Below, one piece after another: positions 57,469 through 64,000 of a DNA stretch of 64,000 nucleotides; position 1 is the first letter of the stretch, and each line of letters starts with the position of its first letter. Source of the stretch: an uncultured cyanobacterium (GTDB lineage Bacteria; Cyanobacteriota; Cyanobacteriia; CAKZMO01). The stretch covers positions 384,001-448,000 of the forward strand of contig CAVRCJ010000003.1 of the NCBI GenBank assembly GCA_963719515.1, in the 5' to 3' direction. The translations under genes and the position numbers were made by a program. The notes beneath the pieces were generated by a model. It was given only the letters and a program-made list of their open reading frames with translations, was not told where the DNA came from and did not search any database.

Positions 57469-59017
57469 CTATTCAGGTGCAGGGATTGACAAAGGGAGAC
57501 GTTGCGGTAGCGTTAGTTGATGAGCCCACCACCTGCCTCGGATATTCCAGACCTCAGCGAATTAGAGCAAGCACCGCGCTCTGTGCTGGTAGGGATTATC
57601 GTGCGGCAGCAAGAGCTGATAGAGCAGCTAGCTCGAGAGGTAGAGCGGCTCAAAGGAATCATTGATAGCGATAGCCAGAGTTCGTCGAAACCGCCGTCAA
57701 GCGACTTGGTGCGACGCAGTGAGAAACCAAAGCCAGCAGAAGAGGGGAAAGAGGATTTGCCCAAAGCCGGCAAGCGGAAAGCAGGGGGACAGCCAGGGCA
57801 CCAGGGGAAAACACGCAAGGGATTTGGACGAGTAGATCGATACGAGGTGGTGCATCTAGAGCATTGCCCGAGATGCGGAAGTGGACATATCGAAAGCGTG
57901 GGACAAAGCTATCGGTGCTACCAGGTGGCGCAGCTGGTGGCCAAGCCGATAGAAGTGGTGGAATACCAGCAGTGGCGGGGATATTGCGGGGGATGTGGTA
58001 GCCATGTCGCTGCGCCCTTACCCGAGGATGTGGTGGCAGGAGAGGATTTGGGCGTGAGCTTGCAGGCGATGCTGGTGTGGCTGAGTCACTATGGCCACTT
58101 ATCCTACGGCAAGCAGCAGGAATGGCTCAAAGAGCTAGGTGATATCGAGGTAGGTGTGGGGACGCTTGTGGCAACGACGCGGCGGGCTAGCCAAGCAGTA
58201 GCGGCAGCGGTGGATGACTTGCAAGCTTGGGCAAAGCAGCAACCACAGCTGCATGTGGATGAAACAGCTTGGCTGGTGAAGGGGGTCAAAGAGTGGTTAT
58301 GGACCATCAGCGGTGAAGGATTTGCGCTCCTCCATGCCGGGGATACCCGCTCGCGCAGTGAGCTGGAGATGCTGCTGGGAAAGAGCTTTGCAGGGGTGCT
58401 CATCTCCGATGACTACAGCGTATACAACGGCTACCCGGTAGCCGCTCAGCAGAAGTGCCTAGCGCACCTATTGCGGCACTTCAAGCAAGTAGCTAAGCTA
58501 AAGCCCCCGCACCAGAAGGCATTGGCCGAAGCATTCATTGCCTTGATAAAAGAGGCCTTTGACCGCCATCGCCACTACCGCCTCGCAGGCGACAGGGCAT
58601 CCTATAACCTATGGGCTGAGCAATTCAAAGTTACATTAGCCGAGGCAATAGCCGAGTGGAAGCCCAAAGCGGGCCATGCGGCTGGGCTTCTGCTCACCTC
58701 ATTGGTGAGCAAGGCGCACCAGTGGTGGTACTTCCTAGACCACCCTCAGGTGCCGCCAGACAACAATTGTGCTGAGCGCTCGCTGCGGCTCGGAGTGACC
58801 AAACGCAAGGTGTCAGGCGGCTCTCGCTCGATGTCAGGCTTTGAGCACACCGCACGACTATTATCGGTGATTCAGACCTGTCGGGCTCAGGGACGCTCTG
58901 CCATAGCCTTCGTCGGGCAGGCATTGGCCAAAGCGGCAGGAGCCATCGACTTGGAGGTGTCACTCATCCCTCTCCAGCATCTACAGCCCTGTGCCGTCAA
59001 CCTCTAGACCTGAATAC
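57469..59017 (+). mobile_element. IS66-family (single-ORF, ISBst12-like) element
   Basis: Imperfect 22-bp TIRs (C/G)TATTCAGGT..AG.G.TTGAC; flanking GTAC(C) duplication. Confidence 0.88.
57517..59007 (+). CDS. IS66 family transposase
   Basis: SSKPPSSD, GGQPGHQG, CPRC zinc ribbon, HVDET, QKCLAHLLR and DNNCAERSLR. Confidence 0.93.
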   Translation: MMSPPPASDIPDLSELEQAPRSVLVGIIVRQQELIEQLAREVERLKGIIDSDSQSSSKPPSSDLVRRSEKPKPAEEGKEDLPKAGKRKAGGQPGHQGKTRKGFGRVDRYEVVHLEHCPRCGSGHIESVGQSYRCYQVAQLVAKPIEVVEYQQWRGYCGGCGSHVAAPLPEDVVAGEDLGVSLQAMLVWLSHYGHLSYGKQQEWLKELGDIEVGVGTLVATTRRASQAVAAAVDDLQAWAKQQPQLHVDETAWLVKGVKEWLWTISGEGFALLHAGDTRSRSELEMLLGKSFAGVLISDDYSVYNGYPVAAQQKCLAHLLRHFKQVAKLKPPHQKALAEAFIALIKEAFDRHRHYRLAGDRASYNLWAEQFKVTLAEAIAEWKPKAGHAAGLLLTSLVSKAHQWWYFLDHPQVPPDNNCAERSLRLGVTKRKVSGGSRSMSGFEHTARLLSVIQTCRAQGRSAIAFVGQALAKAAGAIDLEVSLIPLQHLQPCAVNL

Positions 59018-59542: not shown

Positions 59543-60439
59543 CTATCTGCAGCTCGTTGGAGGAGAATATGATCCTACGTTGTAGCGATAGAAGCTACTT
59601 AAATCGAGAGACGCTCTATTGAAAATAATATAGTCGCCATCAATAGAAGGCTCTCCCACATTGAGATAACCTTCCGTATCGAAAACAGTTACGCCCTCTA
59701 CTAAATCAAGCGTTGGGTTCTCAACACCATATGGCAGATCAATCACTCGCCCATTGACTGTATTACGATCAAGAGACCCAGTCAGACAGGTTCCATATTC
59801 ACCAAAAGTACCAGTATCCCAAAAGTTTCCAACGACCTGATTGCCGGCCTTATTGAAGAGATAGCACCAGATTGAATTCCGAGTCAGATATTCTTCACTG
59901 ACTACGCTCGAAGGCGGTTGGCGATCGCAATACCGATAATTACCGTCCGGTAGCGCTGCAATAGTCCCCTCAGCAGAACTAGACGAGCTAGCACTCGGCG
60001 GCGCGGTCTCAGATGTAGCTGTAGTCGCTGAATCTAGTGACGTGATCGTCAGTAGGTAATCTCCGCGTCCCTCACTACTGTAAGAATTGGCGATCGCTCG
60101 ATAGGTCCCATCTTCAGGCAGAGCCAAAGATAGTTCAGCGTTCGTATTGCTACCATCCACATCATCGCTCTGAGCAATTGAATCGCCGTCAGGGCCAAGC
60201 AAGATTAGATACGCATCAAACTGAGAGCTTTGTAGACGGATTGTCACTTGCTGCCCCACTTGACCCTGAAACGAATACGCGTCGTACAAGCTACCGCCAG
60301 AGTCTATGACCGAATCGCCAGGGCTGAGCGCCCCTCGCTGCTCAAGAACGGTATTAGCAGCGGCATTTCCCTGCCAAACCGCTAGCGTGGCTGACATCAC
60401 GGCTCCAAGCCATAGCAAATTCAGTGTGTTTGTTTTCAC
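59543..60439 (-). CDS. Secreted protein with pre-peptidase C-terminal (PPC) domain
   Basis: YDAYSFQGQVGQQVTIRLQSSQFDAYLILLGPDG...DD...LPEDGTYRAIANSY. GTG start preceded by a GGGAG RBS. Confidence 0.82.
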   Translation of the reverse strand: MKTNTLNLLWLGAVMSATLAVWQGNAAANTVLEQRGALSPGDSVIDSGGSLYDAYSFQGQVGQQVTIRLQSSQFDAYLILLGPDGDSIAQSDDVDGSNTNAELSLALPEDGTYRAIANSYSSEGRGDYLLTITSLDSATTATSETAPPSASSSSSAEGTIAALPDGNYRYCDRQPPSSVVSEEYLTRNSIWCYLFNKAGNQVVGNFWDTGTFGEYGTCLTGSLDRNTVNGRVIDLPYGVENPTLDLVEGVTVFDTEGYLNVGEPSIDGDYIIFNRASLDLSSFYRYNVGSYSPPTSCR

Positions 60440-60764
60440 ATCTAACTCCCTTCGGTAGGGCAATCACCAGCTGAGCAAATCGAAATCACTTTTCTGCAAC
60501 CCGGCATCATTATGATAGAAAGATGCCAAAGAGTACAGCGAAACAAGTATCCTTCTATACGGTTCAATGAAAATTTTCTTTTCTAAAGACAAAGATTTGT
60601 AAATCTCTGCTTTTGACCGTAGGCATAGGCTAGAACGCCACTGACAAGGGTTAGACGATTTTGCCTGTGCCATGCTTTCCACTGTTGATAGTGTAAAATG
60701 CGACCGCTGTTCTCTGTAAACAGCCATATCCACAGTTTCTACAACCACCGAGTTGCCAACATGA

Positions 60765-60998
60765 AACAGAGCGGCCTGTAGCGAGGGTAAAGTAGTCTTC
60801 TCAGGGGATGGAACCTATGCCCCTTTTCGCTATGAGTCGGGTGAATTTTATTACGTGGGCTCCCCTGATGGCAGTATGTTTACTGTAGAGAATGGGATCA
60901 TTCTAATTGAAGACTTTCGAGGCGGACTTACCTTATTCGAAATTACATCTGCTTCGCCAGATCAGTTCAACTTTGTTAGAGAAAATCTAGGGCAATGA
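60765..60998 (+). pseudogene. Start-less gene fragment (C-terminal remnant)
   Basis: 77-codon open frame NRAACSEGKVVFSGDG...FVRENLGQ* with protein-like composition and a stop immediately upstream. Confidence 0.4.
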
Positions 60999-61185
60999 AA
61001 TGTTATGGTCAATTGCTCTACATAGGAGAGGTCTAAACGTCGGCAAGTCCAACAGCTTCAAATCTATCCGTCTCCCCGCCCGCTTCGCGATTGGCGTAGA
61101 AGACGAAGCACCACAACCCCAAGAATGCAAACCTAAACAGTAAGGCAAACATCCATGGACGCCGTTGAATTAACTTGACAAAGAA

Positions 61186-61497
61186 ATGCTAAAAGTAGCC
61201 CTCGACCATCTGAAACAATATCTTAAAGACGAATACAGCGATCGCCTCAATCGAGTTATTTTATTCGGCTCTCACGCTAGGCAAGAGGCTACAGCTGACT
61301 CTGATATCGACATTCTAATTGTTCTAAATGATCCAGTCGATGCTAGCGTGGAAATCCGCCGCACAAGCCAATTTATCGGTCAGCTTTGTTTAGATCACGA
61401 CCTATTAATTTCTCGACTCTTCCTACCCAAATCTCGCTACGAAACAGAAAACTCTCCTCTTCTACGAAACATTCGCAATGAAGGAGTTCTGCTGTGA
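61186..61497 (+). CDS. Minimal nucleotidyltransferase (MNT) antitoxin
   Basis: LFGSHARQEATADSDIDIL (GS-x10-DxD). Confidence 0.9.
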   Translation: MLKVALDHLKQYLKDEYSDRLNRVILFGSHARQEATADSDIDILIVLNDPVDASVEIRRTSQFIGQLCLDHDLLISRLFLPKSRYETENSPLLRNIRNEGVLL

Positions 61498-61865
61498 CCC
61501 CAGAACAGCAATTTCTCATGCAGAAGGCACAACGCAGCCTAGACGCAGCAACGCAGCTCCTACAACAAGAGTTCTACGACTTCGCCGTCTCTCGCGCCTA
61601 CTACGCAATGTTTTACGTGGCTGAAGCCTTGCTAGATAAAGAGGGGCTGTCTTTCTCCAGTCATGCTGCCGTAATCAGCGCTTTCGGCAGGTGTCTCGCT
61701 AAACCTGGCAAAGTTCCTACAGAATTTCATCGGCAGCTCATAGATGCGCAAGCTCAACGCACTCGCGCTGACTACGACCTTCAACCTGACTTATCACAAC
61801 AAGACGCGACGAGCCTAATCAACCAAGCTCAGCAGCTCATAGACTTCGGTTATCGAGAACTTTGA
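61494..61865 (+). CDS. HEPN domain protein (MNT-HEPN pair)
   Basis: SRAYYAMFY, SHAAVISAFG and RTRADY; GTGA overlap with the MNT stop. Confidence 0.9.
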   Translation: MTPEQQFLMQKAQRSLDAATQLLQQEFYDFAVSRAYYAMFYVAEALLDKEGLSFSSHAAVISAFGRCLAKPGKVPTEFHRQLIDAQAQRTRADYDLQPDLSQQDATSLINQAQQLIDFGYREL

Positions 61866-62053
61866 GAATCAGTATCAATCTGTGCCCTCATGCTTTTGGG
61901 CATCTAGAAACTGACGCAGCTCCGCGATCGCCGTCGAAGATGTGGGACCACAGCCCCAAGAGTGCAAAGCCAGCTAGCTCGGAGCGATAAGTGCTATACC
62001 CTCGCTAGCGCGATCGCCCCCTCCAATCCGTGAGTAAGCATCGTACCCTGGGC

Positions 62054-62075
62054 AGTATGTACAGGTGTGCATACT
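62054..62075. promoter_or_regulatory. Palindromic operator upstream of brnTA
   Basis: AGTATGTACA-GG-TGTGCATACT (one mismatch), 10 nt before the brnT start. Confidence 0.6.
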
Positions 62076-62084
62076 ATGCTTAAG

Positions 62085-62170
62085 ATGGCCTACCAATAGA
62101 ATCTAGACAGGGCAGCCAGCAATCTCCGCAAGCGCGGCATCGATTTTGCCGACAGTACGAAGAGGAATAA
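62085..62170 (+). pseudogene. brnT: BrnT toxin remnant
   Basis: MAYQ*NLDRAASNLRKRGIDFAD followed directly by YEEE*: nonsense codon at the usual Trp plus an internal deletion. Confidence 0.75.
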
Positions 62171-62172
62171 CC

Positions 62173-62418
62173 ATGGAAGCCGAATACGACTTTAGCCAAG
62201 GCAAACGCGGGGCAATTGATCCAACCCCAACCGGCAAAACTCGCATCACCATTCGTCTCGATGAAGATATCCTGGCCTGGTTTCGTGAACAGGTCCATCG
62301 AGCGGGCGGCGGAAACTATCAAACCCTAATCAACGACGCTCTGCGCCAGCACATTCAACAGAGCCGCGAACCGCTAGAAGCTACCCTACGCCGCGTCATT
62401 CGAGAGGAGCTGAAGTAA
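62173..62418 (+). CDS. brnA: BrnA-family antitoxin
   Basis: MEAEYDFSQGKRG...RITIRLDEDILAWFR...GGNYQTLINDALR. Confidence 0.88.
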   Translation: MEAEYDFSQGKRGAIDPTPTGKTRITIRLDEDILAWFREQVHRAGGGNYQTLINDALRQHIQQSREPLEATLRRVIREELK

Positions 62419-62540
62419 GCTCTGCGATCGCACTTTCAGCTCTTATTTTGGCAAACTAACCCTCTGGCTACGCTTCTAGCTCATCCGTAGCTCAAGCGTG
62501 GGACAACGACAGCAAACTCGCTAGCAAAGCCTCGTCCGCA

Positions 62541-62588
62541 GCCCACTTTAGTAGGCTTTCTCCGGTAGCCCGCCGTTTACGCGCGGGC
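62541..62588. repeat. REP-like double-hairpin repeat
   Basis: GCCCACTTTAGTAGGC followed by GCCCGC...GCGGGC; related to 27377-27425. Confidence 0.55.
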
Positions 62589-62932
62589 GTCGACAAGCCA
62601 CACTGAGAATTCCTAAGGCGATCGCGCCTTCCAAACCCGCAACTGCTTCATCCAAATCAACAACCCCTCAAACGAAACCAGCAAACACTTACTGGCAAAG
62701 CGCGATCGCCTCAGGCAAACGCGCTACCGCTCAAGCAAATCCCCTTACCACCTACGGGTATCAAGCAAACCTTCAAAGGGAACCTACCGTCGCTCAAGCG
62801 AAACCCCTCAACGCTGAAGCGCCAGCAAAAAACGCTTGCTAAACGGGATCATGGCACAGGCGGCCCAATGAGCAGCAAAAAAAGTTTGTACTACTCTTGC
62901 AGCACAGCCCCCAATGCGATAGAGTCACTTCT

Positions 62933-63145
62933 TGAGAGCTGGATCCCACAGCTCATTGCTCCCAAGTACTTTGGTCAGCGGGGGCGATCGCCATCGACAG
63001 TGACGATCGCTCCCTAACCCCCTCGACAGACAATCCCTGTCTCGGCGGCTACGGGCATTATCCCGTGCCATCCCGAAACACATCACGTCTAGGGATGGCC
63101 AAATCTTGGGTTTCTTACCCAATTCACAAAAAAGGAACCCCAAGA
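62933..63145 (+). ncRNA. Candidate structured leader/ncRNA upstream of a small ORF
   Basis: Seven consecutive hairpins, plus an alternative stem that pairs with the RBS. Confidence 0.5.
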
Positions 63146-63477
63146 TGACAACTCAAAACCGCCCGTTGTCCCTTCTCTCCGAGGGGGCGGCACAGGCCCA
63201 AATGCCCGAAAATCAAGGGCCCAAGCGACCCGCCCCCGAGAGTATACTCAGGCTCACCCGCCCTGACCCCGAAACCGACGACGAATATCTGCACCACATC
63301 ATCATCGGCTCCCCCAAAGCCGTCGAAGACACCATCAAGCTGCTGCACGTGCTGCAGTACGTCGAAAACCGGCGATGGACGCCGCTCATCCCCATTCGGG
63401 AACAGGGGCTGAGGATTACCCCCAATGAAGGGCAGGTGCTGAGCTATTTGGTGCGGCAGCAGCCGAAGCGCTCCTAG
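63145..63477 (+). CDS. Small cyanobacterial protein of unknown function (110 aa)
   Basis: AAGGA RBS. Motif LHHIIIGSPKAVEDTIKLLHVLQY...WTPLIP...GQVLSYL resembles a family I recall from filamentous cyanobacteria. Confidence 0.75.
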   Translation: MTTQNRPLSLLSEGAAQAQMPENQGPKRPAPESILRLTRPDPETDDEYLHHIIIGSPKAVEDTIKLLHVLQYVENRRWTPLIPIREQGLRITPNEGQVLSYLVRQQPKRS

Positions 63478-63488
63478 CTCACCGCAAC

Positions 63489-63515
63489 GGTCAGGTGGGT
63501 ATTACTCACCTGACC
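63489..63515. repeat. REP-like/terminator-like hairpin
   Basis: GGTCAGGTGGGT-ATT-ACTCACCTGACC, 12 nt after the small ORF stop. Confidence 0.55.
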
Positions 63516-63579
63516 CTGCGTCAAAAACATCACCCTACCCATAGGTTTTAATGGTGGTGTTGATGTGGGTTTTTACCTC

Positions 63580-64000
63580 GTGCCTCCTAAATCCTTTCCC
63601 CCCAAAGCAGCTCAGCAGCCCACCCCAACTCGGCTCATTCAGCAGTGGGTCAATCGGGTTGTGAGCGCCGGGGCGATCGCTGTATTGTCGGCGGGCTCGG
63701 GGTATGCTGATGCCGCGATCGCCAACCCAAGCGCCACTGACGCAGGGCAGCCCAGCGAGAGAACCACCCTTGCCCAAGCGCAGCCAGAACTACAGCAGCT
63801 GACGGCATTGCTCGATGCTGTTTTAGAGGCTGCCGCCACCATCGACGCGCCCCAGCCCAGCGCCGAGGCGCTGAGCGACATTGCCGGTGCATACGTGGCG
63901 CTGGGAGATGCGCAGCAAGCCGCGACGGTGATTGAATCAGCCCGACGAGCCGCTTTTAGCATCGACGAGCCCAGCGAAAAATCTTCTGCGCTGACCGCCG
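63580..64000 (+). CDS. Secreted TPR-like repeat protein (3'-truncated by window edge)
   Basis: Frame is open to the window end. Signal-like segment, then ALSDIAGAYVALGDAQQAATVIESARRAAFSIDEPSEKSSALTA helical repeats. Start uncertain. Confidence 0.65.
   Translation, partial: MPPKSFPPKAAQQPTPTRLIQQWVNRVVSAGAIAVLSAGSGYADAAIANPSATDAGQPSERTTLAQAQPELQQLTALLDAVLEAAATIDAPQPSAEALSDIAGAYVALGDAQQAATVIESARRAAFSIDEPSEKSSALTA

Follow-up and report, generated by a model that had tools for sequence, protein, structure and literature searches.

A predicted SymR-like antisense RNA in the leader of a dispersed cyanobacterial gene family

A cassette that is uncatalogued, highly amplified and real was found in a 64,000-nt stretch of DNA from an uncultured cyanobacterium (hereafter the window; contig CAVRCJ010000003.1, positions 384,001 to 448,000). 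The unit consists of a promoter, a leader of ~213 nt and an ORF of 110 aa, and new in this analysis is a predicted antisense gene hidden in the 5' half of the leader. Judging from sequence, the opposite strand of each copy is likely to be transcribed into an RNA of 77 bases that is particular to that copy and resembles SymR of E. coli in shape. We consider it highly probable that such an RNA is made, and probable that it represses the ORF. On balance we lean toward a cassette akin to a type I toxin-antitoxin (TA) module, the leader of which would encode a SymR-like 77-nt antisense RNA that blocks translation of a possibly toxic protein. This reading is supported by about 66 dispersed copies, covarying stems, a conserved antisense -10 box and the SymR-like fold and geometry.

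Organization of the query locus

The initial annotation had described seven consecutive stems ahead of a 110-aa ORF, and all seven are present (Table 1), that at 62962-62974 being weak. The segment 62925-63160 has a minimum free energy (MFE) of -89.6 kcal/mol compared with -59.5 +/- 4.9 for 200 dinucleotide shuffles, none of which was as good (z -6.17). The ORF is likewise present, as is the strong 3' hairpin that had been reported behind it, although this hairpin has no U-tract; the downstream sequence, including the hairpin, is not common to the paralogs. In the MFE structure the segment 63104-63116 pairs with 63133-63145 and buries AGGA together with the A of ATG, as had been proposed, and this helix excludes the hairpin at 63106-63122 from the full transcript. 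That hairpin is seen only when the transcript ends before the Shine-Dalgarno (SD) sequence. Three elements had been missed, namely the sense promoter (62897-62925), a long-range helix, P1, between 62961-62975 and 63096-63110, and the antisense gene.

The sense promoter of the query is also apparent in the alignments of the copies. Of 62 copies tested, 60 show a TTG-N-TAnnnT pattern there, with three of the 60 misplaced by the pattern, and the query promoter is absent from the output of a strict consensus promoter scan. The GTACTA sequence upstream of the -35 box resembles what we take to be the LexA motif, of which the sense promoter has the half-site only and not the full box; GTACT or AGTAC is found in 18 of 62 promoter windows against a background of 6%.

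Table 1. Predicted features of the query cassette (coordinates of the window)
Feature	Position	Strand	Remarks
GTACTA, possible regulator half-site	62888..62893	+	upstream of -35
Predicted sense promoter	62897..62925	+	-35 TTGCAG, spacer 17 nt, -10 TAGAGT; start near 62932
P0, mRNA 5' hairpin	62936..62954	+	fold and alignments
P1 5' arm, long-range helix	62961..62975	+	anti-anti-SD; partner 63096-63110
Predicted ~77-nt cis-antisense RNA, SymR-like, two stems	62974..63050	-	5' end AGCC at 63050; 3' end (62974) estimated by analogy
P2 (62980-63014) and P3 (63025-63041) with conserved CTAACCCC-type linker	62980..63041	+	antisense target, candidate ribosome standby region
P4 sense stem	63051-63066	+	
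Antisense -10 box GATAAT	63057..63062	-	6 nt before predicted start, in loop of sense stem P4
P5 stem	63067..63099	+	
Anti-SD (63104-63116) paired to SD/start codon (63133-63147)	63104..63147	+	
ORF, 110 aa	63145..63477	+	
3' hairpin without U-tract	63489..63515	+	locus-specific; z -6.41

Copies in the source genome and beyond

An iterated HMM search of the source genome (5.28 Mb) gave 80 matches at 78 loci, which agrees with the initial annotation in that the protein family is multi-copy in cyanobacteria, and the RNA module is carried by about 66 of these 78 paralog loci. The 65 copies with a recognisable full leader, which were used for the analysis, form three sequence groups, A, B and C, of 25, 19 and 21 members. 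Their common order is a sigma-70-type promoter, an optional 5' hairpin, the 5' arm, P2, a linker, P3, P4, P5, the anti-SD, the SD and the start codon, and the linker between P2 and P3 takes the form CT(A/G)(A/G)CCC. Similarity among copies is bounded by the -35 box and the stop codon. With a median dS of ~0.7 the copies are old, and purifying selection acts on them, the median dN/dS values for the core being 0.48, 0.22 and 0.64 in the three groups; the ORF is broken in 7 of the 65.

The protein family was found in 16 of 31 relatives and in 24 of 201 genomes of the phylum when up to 29 candidates were scored per genome, and five fully searched genomes held 49, 60, 18, 30 and 6 copies. A total of 913 database proteins match the family. 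Among the 120 matches listed there is no Pfam domain, and those that are named are hypothetical cyanobacterial proteins. Members occur on cyanobacterial plasmids (12 and 10 records), phage records gave no match, and viral contigs gave a single marginal match of 21 residues. No description of the family was found in the open literature or in what was available of the supplements of PMC2864571, and closed tables of cyanobacterial dRNA-seq could list these RNAs. A look-up of sequencing runs listed no RNA data set containing the family, which weighs neither for nor against the antisense RNA.

Some loci depart from the common layout. Two copies on one contig (L062 and L063, G000:C11) have an extra ~115 nt with more hairpins between the anti-SD region and the start codon, and an orphan leader and antisense module with a promoter but no family ORF behind it lies at G000:C11:319400-319800. 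At G000:C1:181000-182330 the leader of one copy is split right after P3 by an insertion of ~830 nt, one end of which resembles what we take to be the reverse complement of domain V of a group II intron. Two further copies (G000:C16:44005 and C8:42031) adjoin genes that, going by their translation, are presumably psbA-like.

A predicted antisense gene in the 5' half of the leader

On the sense strand the apparent loop of P4 has the sequence ATT(G/T/A)TA, which corresponds to TA(C/A/T)AAT on the antisense strand. A rule for this box (an anchor tetramer and a spacer of 6 or 7, the three copies without the anchor being counted as misses) was fixed on the source genome before it was applied to held-out copies. 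TAnnnT was found in 43 of 65 copies in the source genome and nAnnnT in 56 of 65, compared with 1.2-2.0% and 5.8-6.3% in random and shifted controls. The corresponding figures for held-out copies were 38 and 47 of 51 (controls 1.0% and 5.2%), many of these 51 matches coming from a few related assemblies. As the copies are related, these and other copy counts are not independent. Positions 2 and 6 of the antisense box are constant while the middle is variable, as is usual for a promoter. The box of the query, GATAAT, is without the first T, and no conserved -35 was found for the antisense promoter in either the source genome or the held-out copies.

The upstream stems of the leader fit the opposite strand better than the strand of the mRNA. 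In the antisense two-stem alignment, 94.1% of 1005 cells are paired and 17 of 19 pairs have changed on both sides, against 34-54% pairing in slid controls, and the upstream regions of homologues thus covary. Read as antisense RNA these stems contain 87 G.U cells, and read as mRNA they contain 17; the 87 become A.C mismatches in the sense reading. The antisense fold is the more stable in 49 of 53 copies, with a mean z of -4.4 compared with -2.8 for the sense fold. This strand argument rests on the family, since the two strands of the query are equal against shuffles (z -3.44 and -3.52). The loops are the most variable part of the structure, all 53 P2 loops being distinct and P3 having 47 distinct loops. 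A conserved antisense -10, asymmetric G.U pairing, hypervariable loops and a SymR-like fold together lend support to the antisense-controlled, type I TA-like unit that was one of the options raised in the initial annotation.

A covariance model built from 53 antisense segments identified 68 sites in the source genome at E<0.001, of which 53 match by construction; 66 of the 68 are antisense to, and upstream of, a family ORF. In other genomes the model had matches at 8 of 20 cyanobacterial loci. From a further set of 80 retrieved loci, 72 were submitted to it and 43 matched. It also matched 10 of 141 genomes of the phylum, and five whole genomes had 41, 36, 14, 29 and 4 sites.

Relation of the predicted antisense RNA to SymR

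The predicted antisense RNA of the query folds into the two stems of SymR, and the family combines a two-stem fold of ~77 nt with a -10 box that lies 6-7 nt upstream. In E. coli the start of SymR is opposite ATGACT and a TAGAAT box is found 7 nt away, which is the same offset as in the family, and mutation of the TAGAAT box is described in the available text of Kawano 2007 (PMC1891008) as having abolished SymR. The Rfam symR model (RF01809, gathering cut-off 61 bits) matched the antisense strand over model positions 1-77 at 3 of 20 and 5 of 14 loci, three loci being common to both sets. The matches always lay over P2-linker-P3 and always in group C, the best reaching 38.9 bits (E 1.9e-4), and all symR scores at leaders were below the cut-off. 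There was no symR match to the query in the Rfam scan, nor to 14 further loci at E<=2. Genome-wide at E<=5, the top 3 of 4 matches were family leaders (150 of 550 candidates scored), while matches at the same threshold were obtained in 9 of 14 control genomes. The reciprocal match of the antisense model to E. coli symR was weak (12.5 bits, E 0.45). We read the link to SymR as distant homology or close convergence, not as membership.

No Rfam family reaches its cut-off at the leaders, and a scan of window positions 60000-64000 gave chance matches only. Other candidates were tried and rejected: sRNA-Xcc1 has no match in the genome, the single match of PtaRNA1 (E 1.6) is not at a cassette, and C4 RNA has no match in the loci scanned. 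As regards the suggested analogy with phage C4 RNA, neither C4 nor c4-a1b1 was listed among the Rfam matches in those loci. A conserved leader peptide of the mok type was also rejected, as a start codon occurs at the symE-like position in 9 of 62 copies.

The sense strand and access to the ribosome-binding site

The anti-SD:SD helix is conserved with compensatory change (column 240/263 has 15 U-A and 9 C-G pairs). The SD is thus sequestered by an anti-SD of the same mRNA, a feature that the available text of PMC8594479 gives as general for the mRNAs of type I toxins. P1, between the 5' arm and the anti-SD, is present in nearly every copy and in one register. In the 25 group A leaders 93.5% of 322 cells of P1 are paired, with 3 of 13 pairs changed on both sides, and its duplex energy is group-specific (cognate -20.9, -27.4 and -17.9, other-group -18.1, -16.7 and -13.5). 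P1 belongs to the RBS-open state of 45 of 60 copies. The query is not among these. Its P1 duplex is no better than random (-14.9 vs -15.6 +/- 5.3), and its P1 state is 8 kcal less stable than the closed one. P1 does form in a transcript ending at 63112.

The switch proposed in the initial annotation stands as far as the helix that buries the RBS is concerned, but a simple two-state switch is unsupported because the RBS is shut at equilibrium with or without the antisense RNA. Equilibrium accessibility of the RBS in groups A, B and C is 0.32, 0.34 and 0.45 without the antisense RNA and 0.32, 0.32 and 0.40 with it. With the antisense RNA present, opening costs more than 1 kcal extra in just 21 of 60 copies, while in 4 it becomes easier, and deletion of the antisense-covered region changes little. 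A model in which 5' truncation or antisense binding alters RBS access at equilibrium was therefore dropped as unsupported by folding. A kinetic window or ribosome standby, by analogy with tisB/IstR-1 as described in the available text of PMC4147584, may operate in its place.

In the mechanism we propose, the finished mRNA would fold with its RBS buried and would therefore be off. For translation to occur, either P1 would have to hold the anti-SD away in a transient fold during transcription, or ribosomes would have to load at P2-linker-P3. Recognition of the cognate mRNA by the antisense RNA would run through the loops, which are specific to each copy, and the RNA would cover the P2-linker-P3 region up to the 3' part of the 5' arm of P1, as IstR-1 does on tisB.

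The 110-aa protein

The protein has a variable, Pro-rich N-terminus and a basic ~65-aa beta-alpha-beta core (pI ~10) with an invariant G and an invariant W, the core being predicted as strand-helix-loop-strand in an AlphaFold model (pLDDT 85). The query protein is of a soluble type, with a GRAVY of -0.71, a maximum 19-residue hydropathy of 0.95 and no hydrophobic helix, and in this it is unlike the short hydrophobic transmembrane peptides that are typical type I toxins. Pfam and NCBIfam gave no match for the query protein; for the family, PADLOC and the PDB sequences gave none, PHROGs gave one weak match among 43 members, and the ESM Atlas returned only unnamed cyanobacterial clusters. The core resembles half a ferredoxin-like fold (best Z 4.2, VIA). 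As this is a common arrangement, and Foldseek gave no match to the PDB or to viral structures at E<=0.001, the fold is left unassigned and no claim of a new fold is made. Identity with SymE was rejected (hhalign 0.14%; no PF08845 match in the genome; a beta-alpha-beta model). Tight silencing, solitary dispersed copies, some of them decayed, and the parallel with SymE suggest that the protein could be toxic or addictive, which we regard as an even question.

Spread, variant forms and neighbourhood

The initial annotation had also suggested a mobile cassette, and this was borne out in part: insertion sites are lineage-specific and differ among relatives, but no transposase, terminal repeats or target duplication was found. 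The copy beside purU is absent in 5 of 5 relatives, 1 of 4 relatives has that beside aroC (one showing just 78 nt), and no clean empty-site junction is seen because the neighbouring genes differ at these sites. The downstream flank of the query had no DNA match in 5 relatives. Flank sharing was not above chance, whether direct (7.85 nt for cognate vs 7.59 nt for non-cognate flanks) or inverted (7.32 vs 7.38 nt), and the unit holds no recombinase, reverse transcriptase (RT) or other mobility enzyme. HIP1 lies within 100 nt upstream of 32 of 62 copies, compared with 13% in a rough control.

None of 5 plasmid copies carries the RNA module. Two of the 5 face an HTH or ParG gene, and one plasmid homolog lies upstream of a replication gene. 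Several members (L157-L159, L165, L167 and L081) have a minimal leader made up of one hairpin, a CTAACCC-type linker, the RBS and ATG, and some of these face a small ORF or an HTH/RHH gene; such members are likely the ancestral form. At two loci in another genome (L186 and L191, G059:C2) the same RNA module stands directly before an unrelated small ORF, with GAGG and then ATG right after P3 in a symE-like manner, and this arrangement suggests that the module is portable. A symE-type minimal leader (hairpin, CTAACCC linker, RBS, ATG) may have gained the P4-P5-anti-SD module, which would have moved the ORF about 95 nt away, and divergence of the loops would have allowed numerous copies to persist side by side, each under the control of its own RNA. 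A bolder proposition, and one that we consider doubtful, is a new class of type I TA module: an unrelated soluble toxin would have acquired a portable antisense cassette of the SymR type, and the combination would have spread, possibly by a HIP1-linked route, to 15-70 copies per cyanobacterial genome, each with its own loop code, as a large set of mutually orthogonal switches.

Just upstream of the cassette are an MNT-HEPN pair (window 61186-61865) and a BrnA antitoxin without an intact BrnT (62161-62418), and the neighbourhood is TA-rich. Between these and the cassette promoter is a low-complexity, C/A-rich intergenic stretch (62460-62880) with HIP1 at 62618 and 62702. Farther upstream, a 496-aa ORF (57517-59007) is presumably an IS66-type transposase.

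Alternative explanations

Antisense control could be real and yet serve a protein without toxicity, either a regulator or a factor that binds nucleic acid, derived from a plasmid or an island, with the RNA setting its level or timing as countertranscripts do, possibly via termination or mRNA decay. All of the antisense evidence applies equally to this explanation, which would also account for plasmid homologs beside HTH/ParG genes or upstream of a replication gene and for a basic core with half a ferredoxin-like fold and no hydrophobic helix. We consider it rather unlikely nevertheless, because the copies, which number in the dozens and are solitary, divergent, tightly silenced and often pseudogenes, better fit selfish addiction modules as these are portrayed in the available text of PMC1891008, and because the sense strand of the leader has no U-tract terminator.

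A cis-acting riboswitch or protein-responsive leader, in which no antisense RNA takes part and a ligand decides between P1 and the anti-SD:SD helix, would explain why two mutually exclusive helices are conserved, why P1 is so common in RBS-open states and why the linker and a GGTC are conserved. It is an improbable explanation in view of the hypervariable loops (conserved sense-strand loop or junction nucleotides would be expected, and 53 copies have 53 different P2 loops), the A.C mismatches on the sense strand, a conserved P4 'loop' that varies like a -10 box of the opposite strand, and a downstream gene that is always the same orphan and points to no pathway; the riboswitch option of the initial annotation is thus disfavoured. 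Even less probable is a selfish dispersed repeat, MITE-like or RNA-mediated, with hairpins that serve mobility and an ORF that is a passenger or mobility helper. High and patchy copy numbers (6-60), sites that differ among relatives, a unit spanning promoter to stop codon and the excess of upstream HIP1 are what such an element would produce, but terminal repeats or target duplications beyond chance and a recombinase or RT are lacking, and the copies are old, under purifying selection and have kept two promoters.

If the type I TA-like reading is correct, cyanobacteria would have a SymR-related system whose protein family is new and whose copy number far exceeds the symE counts given for Erwinia and Serratia, and SymR might belong to a portable antisense module that unrelated genes have put to use. 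The copies would provide some 60 naturally occurring antisense pairs told apart by their loop codes, of use for testing specificity rules and cyanobacterial synthetic biology, and a testable function would be available for at least 913 'hypothetical' proteins.

Comparison with known systems

Small structured RNAs tied to small mobile genes are also exemplified by sRNA-Xcc1 (RF02221), PtaRNA1 (RF01811) and phage C4 RNA (RF01695). The first of these is located upstream of symE in Xanthomonas integron cassettes, according to the available text of 10.1101/2025.06.18.660453. Reports of type I TA systems had been limited to Proteobacteria, Firmicutes and Tenericutes until the 2025 candidate from Microcystis, as far as the available text of PMC12390103 goes, and that screen deliberately omitted cytosolic symE-like systems. 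Like the cassette, msoT1/msoA1 of Microcystis (PMC12390103) and Ncl1450/Ncr1470 of Synechocystis (10.64898/2025.12.20.695498) are cyanobacterial candidates for type I TA, but as described in the available texts their proteins are short and transmembrane, and MsoA1 overlaps the 3' end of its gene. With tisB/IstR-1 and zor/Orz, as these appear in the accessible part of PMC4147584, the cassette shares a long 5' UTR and an RBS buried by default, and like their antitoxins its predicted RNA would pair well upstream of the RBS, at a standby region that is a candidate here. The antitoxins of those systems are divergently encoded and only partially complementary and their toxins are short membrane peptides, whereas the predicted RNA of the cassette is fully cis-encoded and its protein soluble.

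The closest likeness is with symE/SymR (RF01809; available text of PMC1891008). Both have a 77-nt two-stem cis-antisense RNA of the same fold (predicted in the cassette) with a 5' end of AG(U/C)C 6-7 nt past a -10 box, a leader of the form hairpin-CTAA(T/C)C(A/C)C, in which the P2-P3 linker of the query corresponds to CTAATCAC in the E. coli symE leader, and a soluble product of ~110 aa. SymE-family genes are described in the accessible portions of PMC1891008 and PMC7725324 as either adjacent to an HTH/RHH gene or solitary with an sRNA, and as multiplying within genomes, and the cassette family shows the same split into HTH/RHH-linked and sRNA-linked loci and the same expansion within genomes. 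The available counts for symE are at least 14 copies in Erwinia and 7 in Serratia, compared with about 66 copies of the cassette here. Unlike SymR, the antisense RNA of the cassette would end about 95 nt upstream without overlapping the RBS or AUG, its start being 95 nt upstream of the ATG in the query and 90-133 nt in all but two of 62 copies. The cassette further differs from symE/SymR in having the extra P4-P5-anti-SD module, in lacking a full LexA box and in encoding a protein unrelated to SymE/AbrB.
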